NCBI GenBank assembly: GCA_016704275.1
Contig: JADJAK010000005.1
Location: 235,473 to 299,472, forward strand
Reading direction: 5' to 3'
Source: Gemmatimonadota bacterium
GTDB taxonomy: Bacteria > Gemmatimonadota > Gemmatimonadetes > Gemmatimonadales > GWC2-71-9
DNA length: 64,000 nucleotides
The stretch's first letter is position 1, and each line of letters begins with the position of its first letter. Below the pieces are notes generated by a model. It had not been told where the DNA came from. It did no database searches and worked only from the letters and a program-made list of their open reading frames with translations. The position numbers were made by a program, and so were the translations under genes. Shown one piece after another: positions 5,459 through 63,569 of this stretch.

Positions 5459-6912
5459 TCATCCCCGTCGCGATCGGGTACCTCGGGATCTGCCTGTTGA
5501 TCGGGGTGTGGGCCGCACGGCGCACCCGCACGGCGACCGACTTCTTCATCGCCGGAAAAGGGATCGGCCTCTGGCCGTTGGCGATTGCGTCGATGGCCGC
5601 CACGCTGTCGGGATTCGCCTTCATTGGCGGCCCGGGGCTGATCTACAGCGTCGGCAACGGCGCGCTTTTCATTGTCCTCCCGGCCGCCATCACCGGCGCG
5701 CTCAGTGCCTGGATGCTCGGCAGCCGGATGCGATTGCTCGGGGAGGTGCGCGGCCTGATGACGGTGCCCGACGCCATCGGCGCGCGCTATCGCTCGAGGG
5801 CGGCGCAGGGGCTGTCGGCCGTGGCCATCCTGGTCGCGACGGTCGGCTATCTCGCGACCAATCTGCTCGCGCTCGGGCTCATCGTCGACGCCATCTTCCA
5901 CACGGGCCTTCCGGCGGGGATCGTGATCGGCGCGGCGGTCGTGGTCGCATACTCGGCGGCGGGCGGCATCCTGGCGGGCATCTATACCGATCTTTTTCAA
6001 GGCGCGATCATGGCGCTGGCCTCGACGCTCGTCTTTGCTGCGGCAATGGCGAGTGGCGGCGGGCTGGGGGAGATCTCGCGCACCATCCTGGCGCACGAGC
6101 CGATCCTGCTGGGGCCGTGGGGGAAGTTCACCCCGCTGGCGGCGCTCTCCTTCTTCTTCGTCTTCGCCCTTGGCACGCTGGGTCAACCCCACGTGATCCA
6201 CAAGTACTACATGCTGCGCGATCCGCGCCGGTTGCGCTGGTTCCCGCTGCTGATGACCGGGGCGATGGTCGTGACGCTGCTCCTCTACTTTGGCGTCGGG
6301 GTGGCGATCAAGGCCGCGGTCCTCCGTGGTGATGTCCCACCCTTGGCGAAGGGCGACGACGCGACGCCGACCTTTCTGCTTCGGTACACGGCGCCGTGGC
6401 TTGCCGGGCTCGTCTTCAGCGGCGTCGCCGCTGCGATCATGAGTACCGTCAATTCCTTCTTCAGTGTCGGCGCGGCCGCGATCACCCACGATCTTCCCGT
6501 GGCATTCGGGCGTCGCACCACCAACGAACTGCGGGGTGGCCGCATCGCGACACTCGCGCTGGCCCTCCTCGCCACGCTGCTTGCCCTCGGCAGTGGCCAG
6601 GCCGTCGCGCTCCTCGGCGTCTTCGGCTGGGGACTCTTTGCCTCGACCCTCGTCCCGGCACTCGCGATCGGACTCAATTGGCCAGGGGCCACCCGAAAGG
6701 GGGCACTCGCCTCGATTGGCGTCGGCCTGGTGACCACCCTCCTCTTCGAGACCCTCGCCTGGGCCAAGGCCTACACCTTTCCCGCCGGCGTCACGGTCTC
6801 GGGACTCTCCCTGATCCTGGCGATGGCCACCTTCTTTGCGGTGTCGTGGCTGACGCGCGACGAGGCTGAAGGAGATCTGGATGCGGACGTGCGGGTGATC
6901 ATCGAGAGCTGA
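5455..6912 (+). CDS. Sodium:solute symporter (SSS) family transporter
   Basis: Polytopic membrane protein. SSS-type N-terminal region ..TATDFFIAGKGIGLWPLAIASMAATLSGFAFIGGPGLIY.. About 485 aa. Confidence 0.85.
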   Translation: MIIPVAIGYLGICLLIGVWAARRTRTATDFFIAGKGIGLWPLAIASMAATLSGFAFIGGPGLIYSVGNGALFIVLPAAITGALSAWMLGSRMRLLGEVRGLMTVPDAIGARYRSRAAQGLSAVAILVATVGYLATNLLALGLIVDAIFHTGLPAGIVIGAAVVVAYSAAGGILAGIYTDLFQGAIMALASTLVFAAAMASGGGLGEISRTILAHEPILLGPWGKFTPLAALSFFFVFALGTLGQPHVIHKYYMLRDPRRLRWFPLLMTGAMVVTLLLYFGVGVAIKAAVLRGDVPPLAKGDDATPTFLLRYTAPWLAGLVFSGVAAAIMSTVNSFFSVGAAAITHDLPVAFGRRTTNELRGGRIATLALALLATLLALGSGQAVALLGVFGWGLFASTLVPALAIGLNWPGATRKGALASIGVGLVTTLLFETLAWAKAYTFPAGVTVSGLSLILAMATFFAVSWLTRDEAEGDLDADVRVIIES

Positions 6913-6920
6913 CACTGTGC

Positions 6921-7008
6921 CCAGTGACCAGTGACCAGTGACCAGTGACCAGTGACCAGTGCCAGTGACCAGTGCCCCTGGTTACCGGTCACTGGTTACC
7001 GGTCACGG
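6921..7008. repeat. Heptamer tandem repeat (CCAGTGA)x5 perfect plus 2-3 degenerate copies, followed by a partly complementary GGTTACCGGTCACT x2 tract
   Basis: Read directly: ccagtga ccagtga ccagtga ccagtga ccagtga ccagtg ccagtga ccagtgc ccctggttaccggtcactggttaccggtcacgg. Lies in the symporter-recG spacer. Confidence 0.9.
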
Positions 7009-7043
7009 ATCACCGGATTCCACCATCCCTCTTATCTTCGCAG

Positions 7044-9107
7044 ATGGCCCAACTCCGCCTCGACACACCCATCCAGTTCCTCAAGGGCATCGGCGAGAAG
7101 CGCGCCGACGCCTTTGCACGGCTGGGCGTGGTGTCGGTGCACGACCTGCTCCATCACTTGCCCCATCGCTACATCGACGCCTCGACCACCACCCCGCTGG
7201 CACAGGCGCGGGTGGGTGATGACGTGGCCTGCATCGGCACGGTGGTGAGCAAGGGAGTCCTGCCAACTCGGAAGGGGCTGCGCGTCTTCCACGCGGTGCT
7301 GAAGGACGCCAGCGGACTGCTGGAGTGTGCCTGGCCGGGACAGGCCTTTCTCGACCGGACGCTGGCGGTGGGGCAGCTGATCCTCGTGGCCGGGCCGATC
7401 CGCTTCTATCACGGCCGGCAGATGGCGCCGCGCGAGCTGGTGATCCTCGGCGACGCCGACGATCCAGCGGCAGCCGGGCGGATCCTCCCCGTCTACCCGG
7501 CCACCGAAGGGCTCTCGCACAAGCAGATCCGCGCGCTGATGGAGACGCACCTCGACACGCTGTCGCCGTTGGTGCCGGACGTCCTCGACCCGACGCTCAG
7601 GGACCGCTTTGCATTGCCGTCATTGGCCGATGCGTTGCGGGCAGTGCATCGGCCGACGACGATGGCGGAGGCGGAGTCGGGACGGCGGCGGCTGGCGCTC
7701 GACGAGCTGCTCGACTTGCAGCTGATGCTGGCACGTGCCCGGCACGTGGCGCGCCATGGCCAGCGTGGCCAGACCTTCACGCTGCACAAGACCTTCACGT
7801 CGCAGCTGCGGGAGGCGCTCCCCTGGCCGCTCACCGGCGACCAGAAGAAGGCGATCCGCGAGATCTTCGAGGACATGACCCACGAGGAGCGGATGCACCG
7901 CCTCGTGATGGGCGATGTCGGCACCGGCAAGACGGTCGTCGCGCTCTTCGCCATGCTGCTGGCGCTGGAGAACGACTGTCAGGCGGCGCTGATGGCGCCG
8001 ACGGAGCTCCTCGCGGAGCAGCACTACCGCACGCTCACCACACTCCTCGCGCCGCTCGGCCTCGTGCCGGAGCTGCTGCTGGGGCGCCTGAGCGCGGCAG
8101 AGAAGAAGGCGGCCCACACGCGCCTCCGGACCGGCGCCACCAAGTTGGTGGTCGGCACCCACGCGCTGGTGCAGGAGTCGGTGGCCTTCCAGCGCCTCGG
8201 CCTGGTGGTGATCGACGAGCAGCACCGCTTCGGGGTGGAGCAGCGCGCGGCGCTGATGGGGAAGGGGGAGGCGCCGGACGTCCTGCTGCTCACCGCCACC
8301 CCGATCCCGCGCTCACTCGCGCTGACGCGCTATGGCGACCTCGACGCCTCGTTGCTCAAGGAGCGGCCGCCCGGGCGCGGCACCATCCGCACGGCCGTCC
8401 GCACGCCGTCGCAGCGGCGGCGGGTCTTCGAGTTCCTGCGCGAGACGGCACTCAAGGGCGGGCAGGTCTACATCGTCCTCCCGGTGATCGAGGAGTCGGA
8501 GAAGGCCGACCTCCGCGCGGCGCAGACGATGGCGACGTCGCTCACGGCGCAGTGGCCCGACGTGACCGTCGGCCTGGTGCACGGCCGGCTCAAGGCGCCG
8601 GAGCGCGACCAGGTGATGCGCGACTTCCGCGACGGGAAGATCGGCGTGCTGGTGGCCACGACGGTGATCGAGGTCGGCATCGACGTCGCGAATGCGACGG
8701 TGATGGTCATTGAGCATCCGGAGCGCTTCGGCCTGGCGCAGCTGCACCAGCTCCGCGGTCGCGTGGGGCGGGGTACCGGCGACTCGCACTGCATCCTGCT
8801 GACGGTCGGCGAGGATGTGCCGGAGCGGCTGCGCGCCTTCTCGAAGACCGACGACGGCTTCGCGATCGCCGAGCTGGACCTTCTGGAGCGCCGCCAGGGC
8901 GACCTGCTCGGCGCGCGCCAGTCGGGCGGCGTCGATTTCAAGGTGGCGCGCTTCCCGGACGACACTGATCTCCTGACCGAGGCACGCGCGCTCGCGCGCA
9001 CGATCCTCGACGCCGACCCGACGCTCGACCGCCGCGAGCATCAGGCGCTCAAGGATCGGGTGGTGACCAGGTATCCGAGGGGGGAGACGTTGTTTAGGGT
9101 GGGATGA
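7044..9107 (+). CDS. recG: ATP-dependent DNA helicase RecG
   Basis: Internal ATG of ORF 6972-9107 (the upstream residues are repeat-encoded). Wedge domain plus SF2 helicase motifs: MGDVGTGKT, VIDEQHRFG, LLLTATPIPRS, QLHQLRGRVGRG. Confidence 0.9.
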   Translation: MAQLRLDTPIQFLKGIGEKRADAFARLGVVSVHDLLHHLPHRYIDASTTTPLAQARVGDDVACIGTVVSKGVLPTRKGLRVFHAVLKDASGLLECAWPGQAFLDRTLAVGQLILVAGPIRFYHGRQMAPRELVILGDADDPAAAGRILPVYPATEGLSHKQIRALMETHLDTLSPLVPDVLDPTLRDRFALPSLADALRAVHRPTTMAEAESGRRRLALDELLDLQLMLARARHVARHGQRGQTFTLHKTFTSQLREALPWPLTGDQKKAIREIFEDMTHEERMHRLVMGDVGTGKTVVALFAMLLALENDCQAALMAPTELLAEQHYRTLTTLLAPLGLVPELLLGRLSAAEKKAAHTRLRTGATKLVVGTHALVQESVAFQRLGLVVIDEQHRFGVEQRAALMGKGEAPDVLLLTATPIPRSLALTRYGDLDASLLKERPPGRGTIRTAVRTPSQRRRVFEFLRETALKGGQVYIVLPVIEESEKADLRAAQTMATSLTAQWPDVTVGLVHGRLKAPERDQVMRDFRDGKIGVLVATTVIEVGIDVANATVMVIEHPERFGLAQLHQLRGRVGRGTGDSHCILLTVGEDVPERLRAFSKTDDGFAIAELDLLERRQGDLLGARQSGGVDFKVARFPDDTDLLTEARALARTILDADPTLDRREHQALKDRVVTRYPRGETLFRVG

Positions 9108-9121
9108 CGGCGAGAAGTCCT

Positions 9122-9212
9122 CTTCAGCCGCGCATGTCAATGCGCGGCGCCGGCGGAGCCGGCGTGAGGATTCAGTTCATCACGGGCCGCGCATTGACAT
9201 GCGCGGCTGAAG
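9122..9212. repeat. Perfect 27-bp inverted repeat (CTTCAGCCGCGCATGTCAATGCGCGGC / its reverse complement) around a 37-nt spacer; structured element or terminator downstream of recG
   Basis: Arms at 9122-9148 and 9186-9212 are exact reverse complements. Each arm contains its own GCGCAT..ATGCGC palindrome, and the spacer contains a GCCGGC-gga-GCCGGC hairpin. Confidence 0.8.
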
Positions 9213-9215
9213 CGA

Positions 9216-9244
9216 TCGACCTAACGACCAACGACTAACGACTC
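9216..9244. repeat. Heptamer tract (ACGACNN) x3-4 ending 3 nt before the paralogue-1 start codon
   Basis: tcgaccta acgacca acgacta acgactc cc ATG. Confidence 0.75.
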
Positions 9245-9247
9245 TCC

Positions 9248-10276
9248 ATGTACTCCACTTGCCTCTTCTGCACCAAGGACCTCGGCACCAACGAGGTCGT
9301 CGAGACGCTGCCCATCGGGCGGCGGCTCGCCTTTGATGCGGCCCAGGGCAGGCTCTGGGTGGTGTGCCGGCACTGCGCCAAGTGGAACCTGGTGCCCTTT
9401 GAGTCGCGGCTCGAGAGCATCGACGGGTGCGAGCGGCTCTTCCGCGACACGCCGACACGCTACTCGACCGACAACATCGGGCTGGCGCGGGTGAAGGAGG
9501 GTTTGGAGCTCGTCCGGATCGGACCGGCGATGCGGCCCGAGTTCGCGGGGTGGCGGTACGGCGAGGCGATGCGACTCCGCCGCCGGCGGAACTTCCTGCT
9601 TGCTGCCGGAGCGGTGGGTATCGCCGCAGGAGGCTACGTGGCGCTCGGAGCCTTCAGTGGCGTGGGACTACTGGCGGGTACTGGAATCGCCCAGATCATG
9701 GTCGGCGGCGTGCTCCGACAGCGCATGCGTGTGATCGTAGCGGACCCGTCGTCTGGCCGTCGCCGATCAATCGCCTCAGAGTCTCTTGCGACAACGAAGC
9801 TAGTGATGCGCGAGGACGGACCCCTCCTTCGTGCCACATCCCTGTATGGGGTGAAACAGACCGCCCTGGAATGGCGTGGCGATGAAGTGTCACGGGTGGG
9901 ACGGCGGATCATGGCCGGCATCAATGCGCTGAGCGGCGGCCCGCGGTCCCTCACTGGGGCCGCCGAACTGCTTGGTGCCCACCGTGGTGATCTCTCCTCC
10001 TGGCTCGATCCTGCTCGGCGGCGGGAGATGCGCTGGGAAATCAGCAGTGAAGGGAAGGCGCCACTCGCCCGCTCGGGCGGCATGCACTGGTATGGTTATG
10101 GGGATCCAATGTTGCACGTCGCCACCCTGCCTGCGGAACACCGGCTGGCCTTCGAGATGTACTTCGCCGAGTCCGCTGAGCGCACCTACCTGGAAGGGGA
10201 GCTGAATCTCCTCGAGCGCGAGTGGCGTCAGGCGGAGCAACTCGCGAAGATCGCCGATGGGCTAGCGCTGGAGTAG
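9248..10276 (+). CDS. Paralogue 1 of an uncharacterised zinc-ribbon / putative TM-hairpin / conserved C-terminal helix protein family (intact)
   Basis: 342-aa ORF. MYSTCLFC-x31-CRHC zinc-ribbon signature. Conserved WNLVPFESRLESIDxCERLFRDT..YSTDNIGLARV..LELVRIG..RPEFAGWRYG, then RRRRN followed by about 40 Gly/Ala-rich hydrophobic residues. C-terminal ..ERTYLEGELNLLEREWRQAEQLAKIADGLALE*. Confidence 0.8.
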   Translation: MYSTCLFCTKDLGTNEVVETLPIGRRLAFDAAQGRLWVVCRHCAKWNLVPFESRLESIDGCERLFRDTPTRYSTDNIGLARVKEGLELVRIGPAMRPEFAGWRYGEAMRLRRRRNFLLAAGAVGIAAGGYVALGAFSGVGLLAGTGIAQIMVGGVLRQRMRVIVADPSSGRRRSIASESLATTKLVMREDGPLLRATSLYGVKQTALEWRGDEVSRVGRRIMAGINALSGGPRSLTGAAELLGAHRGDLSSWLDPARRREMRWEISSEGKAPLARSGGMHWYGYGDPMLHVATLPAEHRLAFEMYFAESAERTYLEGELNLLEREWRQAEQLAKIADGLALE

Positions 10277-10304
10277 GCGAGAAGCGAGAAGCGAGAAGCG
10301 ATAA
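10277..10304. repeat. Heptamer tandem repeat (GCGAGAA)x3 + GCGATAA immediately after the paralogue-1 stop
   Basis: gagTAG gcgagaa gcgagaa gcgagaa gcgataa. Confidence 0.85.
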
Positions 10305-10384
10305 GGGGTAAGTGCATTCGCGAGCACGCAGGTCCTTCGACTGCGCAGCCCTGCGGGCTGCTTCGCTCAGGATGACATAACTCC

Positions 10385-10454
10385 TACGACCCACGACTTA
10401 CGACCTACGACCTACGACGTACGACCCTAACAACCAACGACCAACGGCTCAACG
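10385..10454. repeat. Heptamer tandem repeat (TACGACC-like) with about 6 good and about 4 degenerate units, ending just upstream of the paralogue-2 start
   Basis: tacgacc cacgact tacgacc tacgacc tacgacg tacgacc ctaacaa ccaacga ccaacgg ctcaacg .. GTG at 10462. Confidence 0.85.
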
Positions 10455-10461
10455 ACTCCCA

Positions 10462-11568
10462 GTGTACTCCACCTGCCTCTTCTGCACCAAGGACCTCGGC
10501 ACCAACGAGGTGATCGAGACGCTGCCCATCGGGCGGCGGCTCGCCTTTGATGCGGCCCAGGGGCGGCTCTGGGTGGTGTGCCGGCACTGCGCCAAGTGGA
10601 ACCTGGTGCCGTTCGAGAGCGGCTCGAGAGCATCGACGCCTGCGAGCGGCTCTTCCGCGACACGCCGACACGCTACTCGACGGACAACATCGGGCTCGCG
10701 CGTGCGAAGGATGGGCTTGAGTTGGTGCGGATCGGCCAAGCGCAGCGGCCGGAATTTGCGGGGTGGCGGTACGGGGAGCAGTACCGGCGGAGGCGACGGA
10801 ACGCCTTTCTGCTCGGGGCCGCGGGGGTGGCGGCCGGCATGGGGGCGATCGCGGCGTTGAGCGCCTTCGGCTTTGCGGCGGCCAGCGGTGGCTATCTCAG
10901 CTATCAGCTCGTGAAGGCAGGCTGGGATGCCGGGCTGAATCGCCAGGCCAGATTCCTGCTCCCCGATCCCGATCCCGCCGCGCGCGAGACGGTGCGACTC
11001 GATCGCAGTCACCTGAAGCACGCCACGATTTCCTGGGAAGACGGCACGCCGTCGCTCGACCTGCCGCATCCGAAGCACCTGAAGAAGGGGGACTTCGTCC
11101 TCTCATACCGGGGCGCTGACTTGCAGTCGGTGGGGCGTCGGGCTGTCGCCGGCCTCAACCTGCTGGTTGGCGGACGGTCCCAGCTGCAGGAAGGGAGTCG
11201 GATCCTCGCGGAGAATCACGGGGACCTCTCGGCGTGGCTGCGCCGGCGTACCTACTCACTCACGGACGTCCCTGGCTTCCGGCGCCCCGAAGCATTGGTC
11301 GAACTACACCGCCCCATACCTCGTGCTCGACAAGCTCAACGCTGGCGACCGCATGGCCCTCGAACTCTGGATGAACGAGGACATCGAGCGCCAGTGGCTC
11401 GAAGGGGAGCTTACTCTTCTGGAGCGCGAATGGCGGCAGGCGGAGGAGCTGGCGAAGATCAGCGATGCGCTGGCGGTGCCGGAGTCGGTGGACACTGATC
11501 TCGCCAGGCGCCAAGCAGCCCATCGATCATCGATGATCGATGATCGATCATCGACCACCGGGGAGTAG
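10462..11568 (+). pseudogene. Paralogue 2 of the zinc-ribbon family, disrupted by two frameshifts (about 10620 and about 11300)
   Basis: Three overlapping ORF pieces. 10462-10860 (frame 1) carries the N-terminal zinc ribbon. 10578-11498 (frame 3) carries RLESIDACERLFRDT..RPEFAGWRYG plus the TM region and centre. 11167-11568 (frame 1) carries the C-terminal ..MALELWMNEDIERQWLEGELTLLEREWRQAEELAKISDALAVPESVD.. Relative to paralogue 1 (gag tcg cgg ctc gag agc), this copy reads gag agc -gg ctc gag agc, which is a 1-nt loss. Confidence 0.75.
11521..11555. repeat. Heptamer tract (SATCGAT)x5 inside the 3' tail of paralogue 2 and upstream of paralogue 3
   Basis: catcgat catcgat gatcgat gatcgat catcgac. 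Built from palindromic ATCGAT cores, so it is self-complementary. Confidence 0.85.
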
Positions 11569-11573
11569 CTCCC

Positions 11574-12593
11574 ATCTATTCCACCTGCCTCTTCTGCACC
11601 AAGGACCTCGGCACCAACGACGTCCTCGAGACCCTGCCGATCGGCCGGCGCATTGCGTTTGATGCGGCGGAGGGGCGGTTGTGGGTCGTGTGCCGACATT
11701 GTGCCAAGTGGAACCTGGTCCCGTTCGACTCGCGGCTCGAGACCATCGACGATTGCGAGCGCCTCTTCCGCAGCACGACGATGCGCTACTCGACCGACAA
11801 CATCGGGCTGGCACGCGTCAAGGAGGGGTTGGAACTGGTGCGGATCGGCGAGGCGCAGCGGCCCGAGTTCGCGGGCTGGCGCTACGGCGACTCGTTCGGT
11901 CGGCGCCGGCGCCGCAACTTCCTGATCGCCGGCGGCGTCGCCGCAGCAGGGATCGCGGTGGTCTCGGGGGGAGTCGCGCTTGGCGTCTCCTTCGGCATGC
12001 TCGGCCAGCTCCCGAACTACTACAACCTCTTTGTGGTGAATCGCCGCGTCACGGTACGCGTGCCGCGCGCCGACGGCCCACCGATCGAGCTCTCCGACAT
12101 GCTCGCGTCGAAGGCGCGCCTCGTCCGCCGTCCAAACAACGAGTGGCTGATCCGCACCAAGGTGATGGAAGAGTCCAGCATGAGTCGCAAGCTCCGGAAG
12201 GCCGGATCGCAGGAGATTGAATTCACGGGCCCGGAAGCGGAACAGTTGCTCGCTGGTGTGCTGGTGCGCCTCAATCACTGGGGCGGCACCCAACGCACCA
12301 TCCGCGACGCCGTGGAGTTGGTGGAGCGACAGGGGGACAGCGCGGGCGTCATCGCCGGGCCCTTCTCGCCAGTCATGGACGGCAGCGGCTCACAGCTGCT
12401 CGCCAAGACCCCGTCCGAATGGCGCCTCGCCGCCGAGATCGCCCTCAACGAGAGCTCGGAGCGCCTCGCCCTCGCCGGCGAACTGCGTCTGCTCGAGTGG
12501 CAGTGGAAGGAGGCGGATCGGCTGGCCAAGATCAGCGACTCGCTGGCGGTGCCGGAGAGCGTGGATGAGGAGCTGGCCCGGCGGAAGGAATGA
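11574..12593 (+). CDS. Paralogue 3 of the zinc-ribbon family; homologous start position is ATC rather than ATG (first canonical in-frame start is TTG at 11679)
   Basis: In-frame translation from 11574 gives IYSTCLFCTKDLGTNDVLETLPIGRRIAFDAAEGRLWVVCRHC.., collinear with paralogues 1, 2 and 4. The frame is open only back to 11544 and has no ATG/GTG/TTG before 11679. C-terminus: ..ERLALAGELRLLEWQWKEADRLAKISDSLAVPESVDEELARRKE*. Confidence 0.65.
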   Translation: MYSTCLFCTKDLGTNDVLETLPIGRRIAFDAAEGRLWVVCRHCAKWNLVPFDSRLETIDDCERLFRSTTMRYSTDNIGLARVKEGLELVRIGEAQRPEFAGWRYGDSFGRRRRRNFLIAGGVAAAGIAVVSGGVALGVSFGMLGQLPNYYNLFVVNRRVTVRVPRADGPPIELSDMLASKARLVRRPNNEWLIRTKVMEESSMSRKLRKAGSQEIEFTGPEAEQLLAGVLVRLNHWGGTQRTIRDAVELVERQGDSAGVIAGPFSPVMDGSGSQLLAKTPSEWRLAAEIALNESSERLALAGELRLLEWQWKEADRLAKISDSLAVPESVDEELARRKE

Positions 12594-12625
12594 TCGATGA
12601 TCGATGATCGATGATCGATCATCGA
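12591..12625. repeat. Heptamer tandem repeat (TGATCGA)x4 + TCATCGA; the first unit supplies the paralogue-3 stop codon
   Basis: gga TGAtcga tgatcga tgatcga tgatcga tcatcga. Confidence 0.9.
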
Positions 12626-12693
12626 CTTCTGTCACCCAACTGTCATCTTCCCGCCATCCGCAGTCCCAATATTCGAAAATCCCCACCCAAGCC

Positions 12694-13731
12694 ATGTACT
12701 CCACCTGCCTCCTCTGTGCCGACTCGTTGGGGACGAACGCCGTCCTCGAGACGCTCCCCGTGGGGCGGCGCCTGGCGTTCGATCCCGCCAAGGGGCGCCT
12801 CTGGGTGGTCTGCCCCGGCTGTGCGCGGTGGAACCTTGTGCCCTTCGACAATCGGCTCGAGGCGATCGATGAGTGCGAGCGCTGCTTTCGCGACACCCGC
12901 GTTCGCTTCTCCACCGGGACGATCGGGATGGCGCGCATGCCCGACGGCACCGAACTGGTGCGGATCGGCGAGGCGCTCCGCCCCGAGTTCGCGGCGTGGC
13001 GGTACGGCCGCGAACTGCTCCGCCGCCGACGGCGTGCGCTCCCGTTCGGCACGCAGCGCGAGCACACCGGCGTGGCGGCGTGGATCTCCGATGTGGCCAC
13101 GATGGTCGGCACGCTGATCGCCATCCCCTTCCTCGAGGGAGCGATCGGCCCGCGCCACGCGGTGAGCGCCGTGCGTCTCGTGCGCGATCCGTGGACCGGC
13201 AACCTCCTGCGCGTCCGCGCGCTGGCGATGGTGCGCTCCGTCTTGACCCGCGAGGACGACCAGTGGCGGCTCGAAGTGCCCTACCGAAGCGAACTGGACG
13301 TCGTGCTCGGCGACGATCCCCTCGCCATCACGTCCATCCGAGATCACCCCGCCGTCGGCTTCTTCCGTGGCGACAAGCTCTACGAGGGGCTCGCGAGGGT
13401 GCTGCCGACAATCGAGAGTCGCCTGCCGTCGGCGGGTGAGGTGCAAGAGGCGACCCGACTGCTCGAGCGGACCTCCGACGATCCGGCGACGCTCATCGGC
13501 TATGTCACCGGACGGCCGTTGCGCCTCGGGACCAGGGGACAGTTTCCGGTGGCGGACGTGCCAGCGGAAATTCGGCTGGCCCTCGAAATGGCCTCGCACG
13601 AGGAGACCGAGCGGCGCGCGCTGGAAGGCGAGCTGAAGCTCCTCGAGCATGAGTGGCGCGAGGCGGAGCGGCTCGCCGCCATCCTCGATGACCTGGCGCT
13701 GCCGAGCGGAGGGCCCGATGTCGCCACGTGA
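12694..13731 (+). CDS. Paralogue 4 of the zinc-ribbon family (intact, most diverged)
   Basis: Internal ATG of ORF 12604-13731 (upstream residues are repeat-encoded). MYSTCLLC-x31-CPGCARWNLVPFDNRLEAIDECERCFRDT..RPEFAAWRYG..RRRRR. C-terminus: ..LALEMASHEETERRALEGELKLLEHEWREAERLAAILDDLALP.. Confidence 0.8.
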   Translation: MYSTCLLCADSLGTNAVLETLPVGRRLAFDPAKGRLWVVCPGCARWNLVPFDNRLEAIDECERCFRDTRVRFSTGTIGMARMPDGTELVRIGEALRPEFAAWRYGRELLRRRRRALPFGTQREHTGVAAWISDVATMVGTLIAIPFLEGAIGPRHAVSAVRLVRDPWTGNLLRVRALAMVRSVLTREDDQWRLEVPYRSELDVVLGDDPLAITSIRDHPAVGFFRGDKLYEGLARVLPTIESRLPSAGEVQEATRLLERTSDDPATLIGYVTGRPLRLGTRGQFPVADVPAEIRLALEMASHEETERRALEGELKLLEHEWREAERLAAILDDLALPSGGPDVAT

Positions 13732-14500
13732 CGTCTATCTCCTGACGGTGTCCGCCACGCCACTCATCGCCGCGCTCGTGGTGCTCTGCTGGGTGGCGTC
13801 GCTCGTGCGCCGAGACAGTTCGCTGGTGGACCGGGTGTGGGGGCTGGGCTTCGTGTTGCTGGTTCACCACCACACGGCGTTTGCCGGGGAAGTCGGTGGC
13901 ACCGTCGACCGACTCTTCGCGGCGCTGGTGGTGATCTGGGGGATCAGGCTGACGTGGCACATCACCCATCGCAACTGGGGGCACGGGGAGGACCCGCGCT
14001 ATGCCGCCATGCGCGCCCGGAACGGCGCCCGGTGGTGGTGGCAGAGCCTGTTCACCGTCTTCGTGCTGCAGGGGGCACTGATGCTCCTGATCGGCCTCCC
14101 GCTCGCGGCGACGGCGATGCCCGGGGCCGCGTGGGGACGGGCCCTCGGCACCCTGCTCTGGGCGGTGGGCTTCGCCTTCGAGGCTGGCGGTGACTGGCAG
14201 CTCGCTCGCTTCAAGGCCGACTCGGCCAACCGGGGCCAGGTGCTCGATACCGGCTTCTGGCGCTATACCCGCCACCCGAACTACTTCGGCGACGCCCTCC
14301 AGTGGTGGGGCTTCTGGTGCTTCGCGGCCTCAGCGGGGCTCTGGTGGACCATCATCTCCCCGATCCTCATGACGCTGCTGCTCCTGAAGGTCTCCGGGGT
14401 GACCCTGCTGGAATCGGCGCTCGTCGACGCCAAGCCCGGGTATCGGGAGTACATCCGCCGAACACCGGCGTTCTTCCCATGGTGGCCACGGGAGCGGTGA
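13718..14500 (+). CDS. DUF1295-family membrane protein (steroid 5-alpha-reductase / isoprenylcysteine carboxyl-methyltransferase-like fold)
   Basis: Polytopic. Characteristic ..GFWRYTRHPNYFGDALQWWGFW.. motif. The ATG at 13718 overlaps the end of paralogue 4 by 14 nt. Confidence 0.75.
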   Translation: MSPRDVYLLTVSATPLIAALVVLCWVASLVRRDSSLVDRVWGLGFVLLVHHHTAFAGEVGGTVDRLFAALVVIWGIRLTWHITHRNWGHGEDPRYAAMRARNGARWWWQSLFTVFVLQGALMLLIGLPLAATAMPGAAWGRALGTLLWAVGFAFEAGGDWQLARFKADSANRGQVLDTGFWRYTRHPNYFGDALQWWGFWCFAASAGLWWTIISPILMTLLLLKVSGVTLLESALVDAKPGYREYIRRTPAFFPWWPRER

Positions 14501-14543
14501 GGGCGAAGAATGCTGTTCCGTTTTACGTTTCACCCAGGAAGCC

Positions 14544-14646
14544 GTGACCAGTAACCCGTGACCTGTGACCCGTGCCCAGTCGGCGGGCCGCGCGTCCGGG
14601 TTACCGGTTACAGGTTACAGGTTACAGGTTACTGGTCACAGGTCAC
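14544..14646. repeat. Two inverted heptamer arrays, (GTRACCN)x5 and (NGGTYAC)x7, separated by about 19 nt; potential long imperfect hairpin/terminator between the DUF1295 gene and asnS
   Basis: gtgacca gtaaccc gtgacct gtgaccc gtgccca ..gtcggcgggccgcgcgtcc.. gggttac cggttac aggttac aggttac aggttac tggtcac aggtcac. Confidence 0.85.
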
Positions 14647-14676
14647 TGACGTCTCTCCCGTTCCCCGGTCCTCCGC

Positions 14677-15972
<1,296 letters not shown>

Positions 15973-15980
15973 GAACAAAA

Positions 15981-16019
15981 GGGATGATCGATCATCGATG
16001 ATCGATCATCGATCATCCC
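15981..16019. terminator. Near-palindromic heptamer tract GGGATGATCGATCATCGATGATCGATCATCGATCATCCC between convergent asnS and mazG (candidate bidirectional terminator)
   Basis: Self-complementary sequence flanked by GGG/CCC. It overlaps the mazG stop codon (16013-16015). No U-tract. Confidence 0.5.
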
Positions 16020-16771
16020 TCGTTTCGCTTCACCTCATCCCAAATCACATCCAGTTCCTCCAGCGTCGCGTCGCCGAGCACCACCTGCCGCTCGGCGGCG
16101 ATCGTCTCGATCGCTTCGAAGCGGCGGCGGAACTTGGCGTTGGCGCGGTCGAGGGCGATCCCCGGTTGGACGCCGGCCTTGCGGGCCAGATTGACGACCG
16201 CGAAGAGGAGATCGCCGATCTCGTCGGTCAGCGACGTCGGGTCGTCGGCACCGATCACCAACTCGGCCTCCACTTCGGCAAGCTCCTCGGCGACCTTCTG
16301 CAGCGGGCCGCGGGTGTCGGGCCAATCGAAGCCGACCCCGGCGGCGCGCTCCTGCAGCCGGTAGGCCATCAGCAGTTCGGGGAGCGTGGTCGGGAGGCCG
16401 CCGAGGGTGCCGCGGCTGGTCGGCCGCTCCCGGGCCTTGAGCGTTTCCCAGCGCTCCCGCTCCCCGAGGTCGAAGAGGTGGGGGTGGCGACGCTGCATCT
16501 TGGCGACCAGATCGTCGGCGATGTCGTCCGGGCTAAATTCCCCGGTCTCCGCGCCGAGCACGAGTTGCCAGGCGAGATGGAGCATCAGGTCGGCGACTTC
16601 CTCGCGGATGGCGGCGGGCTGGTCGCTGCTGAGGGCGGCCGCGAGTTCGTGCGCTTCCTCGATCAGGTAGGGGCGCAGCGTCTGCCGGGTCTGGACCCGG
16701 TCCCAGGGACACCGCTCGCGCAGGTCCGCCACCATCGCCACCGCCCTGCCGAGGGCCGATTCGTCTTGCAT
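16013..16771 (-). CDS. mazG: Nucleoside triphosphate pyrophosphohydrolase MazG
   Basis: ..LRERCPWDRVQTRQTLRPYLIEEAHELAAAL.. and a second EExGDLLF-type repeat (EIGDLLFAVVNLARKAG). The only convincing minus-strand gene in the window. Confidence 0.85.
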   Translation of the reverse strand: MQDESALGRAVAMVADLRERCPWDRVQTRQTLRPYLIEEAHELAAALSSDQPAAIREEVADLMLHLAWQLVLGAETGEFSPDDIADDLVAKMQRRHPHLFDLGERERWETLKARERPTSRGTLGGLPTTLPELLMAYRLQERAAGVGFDWPDTRGPLQKVAEELAEVEAELVIGADDPTSLTDEIGDLLFAVVNLARKAGVQPGIALDRANAKFRRRFEAIETIAAERQVVLGDATLEELDVIWDEVKRNEG

Positions 16772-49231: not shown

Positions 49232-49410
49232 CGGTAGTTTGAGGCACAATTGAAGACCAGCGAATGGGGCAGCTCGGAAGTCCGGTGAAATGCCGGCGCG
49301 GCCCCGCCACTGTAACGGGCAGCAGTAAGACGTCGTTCATTGCGCCACTGGGGTAGTACCCCCGGGAAGGCGAACGACGAGCCCGGAGCCAGGAGACCTC
49401 TCCGTTCGCG
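49232..49410 (+). promoter_or_regulatory. Cobalamin (B12) riboswitch
   Basis: Conserved core ..GGAAgtccGGTGAAAtgCCggcgCGGcCCCGCCACTGtaac.. and B12 box ..AGCCAGGAGACCT.. in the 220-nt leader of the FecCD/ABC/TonB operon. Boundaries are approximate. Confidence 0.85.
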
Positions 49411-49516
49411 CCACCAATAAACCCTCGGGGGAGGGGATGGTGGCGTGGTCGTGGAAGTCCGCGGAGCCGTGCGTCCGCGCCCATCTGCGTCTCACGTCCC
49501 GCCCGTCCTCGACCCC

Positions 49517-63482: not shown

Positions 63483-63569
63483 GGACAGGTGTCCGAGTGG
63501 TTGAAGGAACCGGTCTCGAAAACCGGCAAACCGGCAACGGTTTCGAGGGTTCGAATCCCTCCCTGTCCG
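63483..63569 (+). tRNA. tRNA-Ser (anticodon CGA)
   Basis: Cloverleaf read by hand. Acceptor GGACAGG/CCTGTCC. Anticodon stem CCGGT/ACCGG with loop CU-CGA-AA. Long variable arm AAACCG-gcaa-CGGTTT. T-arm GAGGG-TTCGAAT-CCCTC. Discriminator G. No encoded CCA. Confidence 0.92.

Follow-up and report, generated by a model that had tools for sequence, protein, structure and literature searches.

A syntenic tandem array between recG and asnS represents an undescribed family of putative zinc-ribbon membrane proteins in Gemmatimonadota

In a 64,000-nucleotide stretch of the genome of a Gemmatimonadota bacterium (GenBank assembly GCA_016704275.1, contig JADJAK010000005.1, positions 235,473 to 299,472 of the forward strand; hereafter the window), four consecutive same-strand paralogous genes, c1 to c4, lie at 9248-13731, as confirmed by the open reading frame (ORF) listing, direct reading and three-frame translation. 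These genes represent an undescribed protein family without a named relative, which brings together known building blocks, namely a zinc ribbon, a transmembrane (TM) hairpin, possibly a PH-like domain and a coiled coil, in a new combination. As far as the recovered sequences go, every named or listed member comes from Gemmatimonadota, where the family appears to be widespread. The explanation that we prefer, and to which we give about an even chance, is that c1-c4, ancient paralogues from a phylum-specific family, serve as subunits of a lineage-specific assembly located at the membrane, on its cytoplasmic side.

Under this explanation, each protein would begin with a zinc-ribbon N-domain that is about 105 aa long, basic and equipped with four cysteines, followed by a poly-Arg collar and a Gly/Ala-rich helical hairpin in the inner membrane, which is predicted in the c1, c2 and c3 types and lost in the c4 type. 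The hairpin would lead into a variable cytoplasmic domain, beta-rich and possibly PH-like, with three helices, then into a disordered linker and finally into an acidic heptad helix of about 44 residues. The N-domain and the C-terminal helix would provide a function common to all copies, either assembly of homo- or hetero-oligomers at the cytoplasmic membrane face or binding of one shared partner, and the opposite conserved charges of the two parts would fit such a role. The middle domain would then give each paralogue its own specificity. We read the role as a lineage-specific one in the cell envelope or in membrane organization, rather than one in immunity.

The primary evidence comes from the uneven conservation of the proteins. 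Segment identities were taken from a MAFFT alignment of the four window copies with their positional counterparts from four related loci (L001-L097 below label the related loci and assemblies compared with the window). Among the window copies, identity is 68-92% in the N-module (residues 1-110) and 51-64% in the C-terminal motif, as against 17-29% in the hairpin or hydrophobic segment and 18-32% in the middle segment. The pattern of conserved ends with a variable middle is real and far beyond chance, and both the ORFs and the alignment bear out an earlier sequence-only reading of the window, which had described four same-strand zinc-ribbon paralogues with a shared four-part layout. In an alignment of 64 sequences C40 and C43 are invariant, with C5 and C8 being at least 90% conserved, and the cysteines are also conserved across 125 members. 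Almost all of the 45 positions that are invariant in the 64 sequences belong to the N-module or to the C-terminal helix; among them are C40, C43, the GRRxAFD and GRLWVxC blocks, WNLxP, RPEFxxWRYG and E, L, W and D positions of the C-terminal helix. Across the 125 members, mean column entropy is 0.91 bits in the N-module and 1.18 bits in the C-terminal helix, and 2.7-3.1 bits in the hairpin, middle and linker; the conserved charges comprise 13 basic and 6 acidic positions in the N-domain and 2 basic and 7 acidic positions in the C-terminal helix. Direct reading of the alignment further shows that the conserved hydrophobic positions of this helix are spaced 4-3-4-3.

Searches initiated with c1 recovered 6,717 proteins at E <= 1e-3, mostly in full-length alignments at 43-79% identity; all the named ones are 'hypothetical proteins' from Gemmatimonadota, and no precomputed Pfam domain is attached to any. 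With c4 as query, an exhaustive search yielded 2,203 representatives at 50% identity, of which 741 lie below E 1e-30. When one genome per species was scanned, at least 596 confirmed family stretches emerged, the best 80 of which are all from Gemmatimonadales, Gemmatimonadaceae or Longimicrobiales. The viral contigs searched held no relative of the family. Pfam and NCBIfam scans of the window copies returned only sub-threshold zinc-finger matches, and no Pfam family, DNA-binding families included, exceeded its threshold in any of the 64 alignment members. The best Zn_ribbon_TFIIB match attains 16.5 bits, below the cut-off of 22; zf-CW reaches at most 12.7 bits for the window copies (cut-off 27.5), with a best E of 0.015 among the 64 members; and the best sub-threshold zinc-finger E values span 0.0055-0.015. 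A profile search of PDB sequences found nothing below E 0.75, Foldseek recovered no match at E <= 1e-3 either for the c1 model, in PDB and BFVD, or for the c4 model, in PDB, and our literature searches found no description of the family. The sequence-only reading had been unable to place these proteins in any named domain or family, and this assessment stands: Pfam, NCBIfam, PADLOC, PDB profile and Foldseek searches are all without a significant match, and no confident match to a characterized housekeeping family emerged from the profile and structure comparisons.

Structure prediction supports a common architecture. The AlphaFold2 model of c1 (predicted local distance difference test score, pLDDT, 81; predicted template modelling score, pTM, 0.74) places strands around the second CxxC of the N-domain, which further comprises a helix at 54-67 and a sheet of three strands; in the models of both c1 and c4 strands 26-30, 35-39 and 46-48 flank this second knuckle. 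The knuckles are thus predicted to sit on beta-hairpins, and the four cysteines of the N-module would bind zinc. The c1 hairpin is formed by helices 101-134 and 140-159 and is followed by a beta domain of five strands over 162-210 capped by a helix at 212-225, by two more helices, by a disordered loop at 265-282 and by a 44-residue helix at 296-339. The c4 model (pLDDT 77, pTM 0.69) has the same order of secondary structure elements, with residues 116-158 being mostly non-helical at a pLDDT of about 45-56, so that of the two copies modelled only c1 has a confidently helical hairpin. In hydropathy profiles, Arg clusters lie on both sides of a Gly/Ala-rich stretch of about 42 residues in c1-c3, whereas this stretch is degenerate in c4, and the ten least hydrophobic of the 125 members all fall in the c4-type clade. 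The Arg cluster and hydrophobic stretch of about 40 residues, proposed from the sequence to form a TM hairpin in all copies, hold up for c1-c3 and fail for c4. Applying the positive-inside rule to the flanking Arg clusters, both ends, and hence both large domains, are predicted to be cytoplasmic, with only a turn of about five residues outside. A role in sensing, which had been suggested alongside defence, is thereby made unlikely in so far as it concerns extracellular signals.

This architecture bears on two other explanations. One is that the proteins are membrane-tethered regulators, in which the zinc-ribbon N-domain binds DNA, RNA or a sigma factor and the variable domain serves as signal input. 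The N-domain is rich in Arg and aromatic residues and has a four-cysteine zinc site, some members show weak sub-threshold similarity to Zn_ribbon_TFIIB and zf-CW, and many paralogues per genome are typical of regulator families. However, the signature is CxxC-x31-CxxC rather than the HxxxCxxC of zinc-binding anti-sigma factors, the gene tables place no sigma-factor gene beside any copy, there is no predicted periplasmic domain to receive an outside signal and no DNA-binding Pfam family reaches threshold; we regard this explanation as doubtful.

Alternatively, the family could be related to the membrane-anchored bacterial PH-domain proteins (DUF304/bPH_2, YdbS/YdbT), which form intracellular oligomeric rings, and carry in addition a zinc ribbon at the head and a coiled coil at the tail. 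The parts follow one another in like order, two TM helices preceding a beta-rich domain with a helix cap, and the only recurring local Foldseek matches are to PH-superfold domains, including the bacterial PH protein 3b77 (E 0.7-2.7, probability <=0.28). Moreover, in bacterial PH families described previously, a pair of TM helices at the N-terminus precedes an intracellular domain, the proteins form rings or tend to oligomerize, and their functions are mostly unknown (PMC2817789). In c1 two TM helices, with Arg on both flanks, do precede the domain, but not in c4; further, all Foldseek matches have E >=0.3 and probability <=0.28, no bacterial PH Pfam family appears in any of the 64 members even at E <= 1, and only five strands are predicted, compared with the seven-stranded PH sandwich. 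Such a kinship is thus distinctly unlikely in our estimate.

Comparative genomics indicates that the array has a long history. The order ftsZ ... ftsY, (SSF transporter), recG, family copies, (DUF1295), asnS, mazG, alr is conserved, with elements in parentheses being variably present. Four-copy arrays occur in L001-L005, L087-L092 and L097; in other Gemmatimonadales the recG-asnS slot has 1, 2 or 3 copies, and in all the succession recG, 1-4 copies, (DUF1295), asnS was seen in about 25 loci. As judged from synteny, the array is a long-standing feature of Gemmatimonadales and not a mobile insertion or an island, and the earlier view that these genes had been inserted between core genes does not survive the conservation of this neighbourhood across the order. 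Individual copies also have recognizable counterparts: the middle segment of window c3 is 98% identical to that of L004 c3, and the middle of c4 is 93% identical to L004 c4, 63% to the third copy of L005 and 49% to the third copy of L006. In a neighbour-joining tree of the 125 members, the recG-asnS arrays fall into one clade of c4 type, one of c3 type and looser groups of c1/c2 type. The c4 type, low in hydrophobicity, is last in 11 of the 12 arrays of its clade, and the hairpin-less type always adjoins DUF1295 or asnS. The paralogue types are therefore old, with the order in the array largely kept. Recent local amplification was considered and rejected in view of the positional orthologues and old paralogue clades; what stands of that proposal is that the family is multi-copy, with 1-4 copies at this locus among relatives. 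Thus, the family is syntenic in its relatives but it is neither single-copy nor conserved in its middle segments. In Longimicrobiales and other lineages further copies exist at other loci, with at least four seen in two complete chromosomes.

The stop of c4 and the start of the DUF1295 gene overlap by 14 nt (13718-13731), as they do in L001, and by 4 nt in L005, which probably reflects translational coupling. DUF1295 proteins resemble steroid reductases and phospholipid methyltransferases, and one could envisage that the family works with this adjacent enzyme in lipid or envelope metabolism, c4 being the soluble partner. The overlaps and the constant position of the hairpin-less type next to DUF1295 or asnS favour such a partnership; against it, the DUF1295 gene is missing from many arrays, in which the last copy abuts asnS directly, and from the loci of Longimicrobiales and other Gemmatimonadota, making it highly improbable. 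In six Longimicrobiales loci (L038 5631-7913 on the - strand, and also L036, L047, L052, L059 and L080) a family member lies just downstream of a gene for a DUF819 membrane protein (E 1.6e-81), and a second family member is oriented divergently to this pair. As neighbours, both DUF819 and DUF1295 are limited to a subset of loci.

We then compared six close backbones with respect to the evolution of the individual copies. Their RecG proteins are 96-100% identical, whereas identities are 61-85% for c1, 73-93% for c2, 85-98% for c3 and 86-94% for c4. The allele groupings conflict between c1, c2, c3 and c4, and the array therefore has a mosaic history. Sliding-window DNA identity is about 0.9 along the backbone. 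Across the c1 hairpin and middle (9600-10050) it falls to 0.47-0.65 relative to both L001 and L004, and across the c2 middle (10800-11400) to 0.59-0.71 relative to L001 only, with the breakpoints located where the conserved N and C modules border on the variable part. In these c1/c2 cassettes the proportion of synonymous differences (pS) is 0.59-0.76, which is near saturation, as against 0.30-0.47 for recG and asnS, and the ratio of non-synonymous to synonymous proportions (pN/pS) is 0.24-0.47. Given the saturated synonymous sites and these ratios, positive selection on the variable cassettes was rejected; the cassettes are instead old alleles moved by recombination, and not products of in-place positive selection. 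The hairpin and middle cassettes of c1 and c2 have thus been exchanged between lineages, among otherwise near-identical backbones, by recombination within the conserved ends. In c3 and c4 the synonymous divergence (dS) is backbone-like, and the ratio of non-synonymous to synonymous divergence (dN/dS) is 0.01-0.34; for c3 against L004 in particular, dS is 0.26-0.44 and dN/dS 0.01-0.14. Both genes are under purifying selection, c3 strongly so since the split of the window and L004 lineages. The idea of a diversifying locus finds some support in the replacement of c1 and c2 middles between close genomes, but not in the selection on c3 and c4 or in the cassette pN/pS, which stays below 0.5.

The conserved N-terminal end shows the converse behaviour. 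Within a genome, dS of the N-module is 0.05 between c1 and c2 of L004 and 0.17-0.27 among c1, c2 and c4 of L005, compared with 0.2-0.5 between orthologues. Tracts shared between copies in relatives are 95-100% identical in DNA over about 300-360 nt, including 60 nt of leader, after which identity falls to about 45%. Gene conversion thus homogenizes the 5' leader and N-module between copies, resulting in concerted evolution, and leaves direct repeats of 240-360 nt that could drive changes in copy number. A c3-type copy of L005 has its N-module converted to the c1 type with its C-terminal helix unconverted. N-module types are accordingly interchangeable, which suggests a partner or role common to all copies.

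Two of the window copies carry apparent defects. In c2 a 1-nt deletion at 10618 (AGCGG, versus AGCCGG or TCGCGG in relatives) leads to loss of frame after codon 53, and an extra base near 11274 regains it; the middle is open in the shifted frame for 306 codons (10578-11498), and neither frameshift sits within a long homopolymer. At the start position of c3 the window has ATC, L004 has ATT (about 12390) and L001 has ATG (12405). No in-frame ATG, GTG or TTG is present upstream in the window; a GTG is found four codons upstream in L004 and in the conspecific assemblies, where the window has GTA. The first canonical in-frame start is a TTG at 11679, use of which would delete the first CxxC, and a GGGAG lies 9 nt upstream of the frame. 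Near-cognate initiation of c3 is possible. Five assemblies that encode an identical c1 protein have an intact c2 of 352 aa and the GTG four codons upstream of c3, and on this account the c2 and c3 defects are strain-specific or due to assembly error rather than a property of the family or lineage. L092, which encodes an identical c4 protein and is not identical to the window in sequence, has the deletion at 10618 without the second c2 shift. The decay of some copies noted in the sequence-only reading is therefore correct for the window, in the c2 frameshifts and the loss of the c3 start, and incorrect as a lineage trait. In L006/L015 (contig_20234, 1.07 Mb) recG, asnS, mazG and alr are fragmented in a manner resembling long-read indel errors, and these split housekeeping genes counsel caution over frameshifts in similar assemblies, possibly including the window.

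Table 1. Features of the recG-asnS region in window coordinates
Feature	Coordinates	Strand	State or basis
recG, conserved upstream flank of the array	6972-9107	+	ORF; Pfam RecG domains at orthologous loci
Heptamer repeats CGACCAA / CTAACGA	9217-9243		End 4 nt before the c1 start; one extra unit in L088
c1	9248-10276	+	Intact, 342 aa (ORF listing)
c1 N-module with C5/C8/C40/C43	9248-9577	+	
c1 Arg cluster and predicted TM hairpin	9578-9727	+	AlphaFold2, hydropathy
c1 predicted beta-rich, possibly PH-like domain and three helices	9728-10033	+	AlphaFold2
c1 predicted disordered linker	10034-10132	+	
c1 predicted acidic heptad helix	10133-10273	+	AlphaFold2 helix 296-339
c1-c2 spacer	10277-10446		(GCGAGAA) x4.1 at 10277-10305, unique sequence, (CCTACGA) x8.9 at 10383-10446
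c2	10462-11568	+	GTG start; two frameshifts (three-frame translation; DNA alignment with intact orthologues of L004 and L001; conspecific assemblies)
(CATCGAT) x4.9 heptamer array	11521-11554		3' end of c2 runs into the array in the window
c3	11574-12593	+	Complete 339-codon frame; ATC at the ancestral start position
(ATGATCG) x5.1 heptamer array, c3-c4 spacer	12590-12625		Unit number differs between conspecific L087 and L088
c4	12694-13731	+	Intact, 345 aa; hydrophobic hairpin degenerate or lost; stop overlaps next gene
DUF1295-family membrane protein gene	13718-14500	+	Pfam PF06966, E 2.3e-67
asnS, conserved downstream flank of the array	14677-15972	+	ORF; synteny

The spacers of the region are filled with repeats, as had been noted from the sequence, and the repeats vary in unit number within the species. 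Every intergenic spacer in the 9-kb segment 6917-16017 has tandem heptanucleotide repeats of differing unit sequence, and TRF detects no period-7 array elsewhere in the window. One-unit (7-nt) length differences separate conspecific assemblies at 9229, at 10398 and in the c3-c4 spacer; in the c1-c2 spacer L087 and L089 have one extra unit, and L004 has 12.1 units of repeat. Beyond the arrays listed in Table 1, others occupy 6917-7016, 14534-14643 and 15983-16017. As heptamers thereby also flank recG, asnS and mazG, they are not specific to the family. Over 87 loci including the window, TRF assigns period 7 more often than any other (125 arrays in 25 loci), and both unit sequence and number vary between close relatives. 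The arrays resemble heptamer repeats known from cyanobacteria and Beggiatoaceae, and literature searches for such repeats in Gemmatimonadota found no description. A perfect 27-nt inverted repeat with a 37-nt loop (9122-9148 / 9186-9212) lies between recG and c1 and recurs in the conspecific assemblies, with heptamer repeats and other sequence replacing it in L004. Upstream of asnS, heptamer arrays in opposite orientation form an imperfect 57-nt palindrome at 14535-14648, and a palindromic GATGATCGATCATC array at 15983-16017, where asnS and mazG converge, scores like the hairpin of a terminator. A promoter and terminator scan of 6800-16200 gave counts no higher than in shuffled sequence, and Rfam and tRNA scans found nothing in the array region; the c1-c2 spacer has a folding z-score of 0.36, and a search with the spacer motif returned only the one copy. 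Elsewhere in the window, and unrelated to the array, are a cobalamin riboswitch at 49236-49418 (+; 74.4 bits) and a tRNA-Ser(CGA) gene at 63483-63569 (+).

The variable cassettes and repeats invite the explanation, akin to that of the sequence-only reading, that this is a diversifying sensing, defence or contingency locus, in which the middles recognize phage or competitor molecules, the hairpin is a pore-type effector and the repeats switch expression. Consistent with this, the cassettes of c1 and c2 are replaced between backbones whose RecG proteins are 96-100% identical, copy number ranges from 1 to 4, conspecific assemblies differ by exactly one heptamer unit ahead of c1 and of c2, c2 is disrupted in the window strain, and one of the 64 members has a sub-threshold SLATT_2 match (E 0.061). 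Yet PADLOC yields no defence model at E <= 1 for c1, c3 or c4, no member occurs on the viral contigs and no partner gene is conserved; a tie to known defence families or mobile elements did not emerge. Further, the family is phylum-wide and syntenic between housekeeping genes, its paralogue types are ancient, c3 and c4 are under purifying selection, the cassettes (pN/pS 0.24-0.47) are old recombined alleles, and like heptamers flank recG, asnS and mazG. We consider the explanation unlikely. Somewhat more remote is a variant in which the c1/c2 cassettes are old alleles maintained by balancing selection and the family serves a Gemmatimonadota-specific form of intracellular recognition, its exchangeable hairpin and middle modules detecting variable invaders or kin signals, the common zinc-ribbon head and acidic tail linking detection, by way of the Gly/Ala-rich hairpin, to a response at the membrane and the heptamers tuning the expression of each copy; this, too, is doubtful.

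Returning to the preferred explanation of a lineage-specific assembly at the membrane, several points weigh against it. When neighbouring ORFs were clustered in about 60 loci outside recG-asnS, in search of a conserved partner gene, the largest cluster covered 10 loci with inconsistent position and orientation; because no neighbour is conserved there, genomic context offers no functional clue beyond the recG-asnS locus. The topology is a prediction from hydropathy, the positive-inside rule and AlphaFold2, contact between the N-domain and the C-terminal helix is putative and suggested only by the high pTM and complementary charges, and oligomerization, or any particular partner, is likewise a putative mechanism. 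Finally, the rapid turnover of c1/c2 cassettes, along with the within-species length variation of the upstream heptamers, is easier to reconcile with a role in conflict than with plain housekeeping.

Soils and wastewater contain Gemmatimonadota in abundance, but the phylum is poorly studied and represented by few cultured members; the present family, with thousands of members and several copies per genome, is one of the phylum's large unnamed ones. Although the N-domain ranks with the best-conserved sequences of the locus, there is still neither a Pfam or NCBIfam model nor a structural relative; defining the family would thus provide a new candidate domain family and possibly a marker of the phylum. 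It also offers a natural example of module-wise evolution within one gene, with concerted evolution at one end and allelic cassette exchange in the middle, and a tractable target for studying what is special in the membrane or cell organization of these bacteria. If the variable copies are indeed related to conflict, they would constitute a new kind of immune or recognition module.

Comparison with known systems helps in delimiting the family. With the bacterial PH-domain proteins (bPH_2/DUF304, DUF1200, DUF2244; YdbS/YdbT type) it shares the predicted layout of an intracellular, helix-capped beta-rich domain behind a pair of TM helices; unlike it, the known families have neither a zinc-ribbon N-domain nor a conserved acidic C-terminal helix and are not limited to one phylum, and the present proteins lack a profile match to them, the structural similarity being non-significant. 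The N-domain recalls zinc-ribbon and treble-clef domains (Zn_ribbon_TFIIB, the first knuckle of zf-CW) in its two CxxC knuckles with beta-hairpins and in a local WVxCxxCxKW motif, but stays below the Pfam thresholds and runs on into a conserved helix and three-stranded sheet that are unmatched in those domains. Zinc-binding anti-sigma factors differ in their HxxxCxxC motif, which is absent here in favour of CxxC-x31-CxxC, and no sigma-factor Pfam domain is found among the neighbours. SLATT-type effectors likewise join a pair of TM helices to cytoplasmic domains; in the present case there is a sub-threshold match in one of 64 members, no associated nucleotide-signalling genes were found and synteny is stable. 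In contrast to the patchy and mobile defence systems of PADLOC, the array has a fixed recG-asnS position, and the family is phylum-wide and absent from viral contigs. Repeat contingency loci also have tracts with length polymorphism between close strains, but the repeats here are not specific to the family genes. Pilin and surface-protein cassette systems are characterized by conserved ends, variable cores and segmental gene conversion. The array resembles them in its conserved 5' and 3' recombination arms, exchange of cores, concerted conserved block and copy-number variation, and differs in the predicted location of its variable part, in the cytoplasm or the membrane rather than at the surface, in consisting of full genes throughout without silent cassettes and in showing no sign of dN > dS. 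The likeness to gene-conversion families is seen in the low within-genome dS (0.05 for L004 c1/c2, versus 0.2-0.5 for orthologues) and in the sharp tract boundary after about 360 nt.

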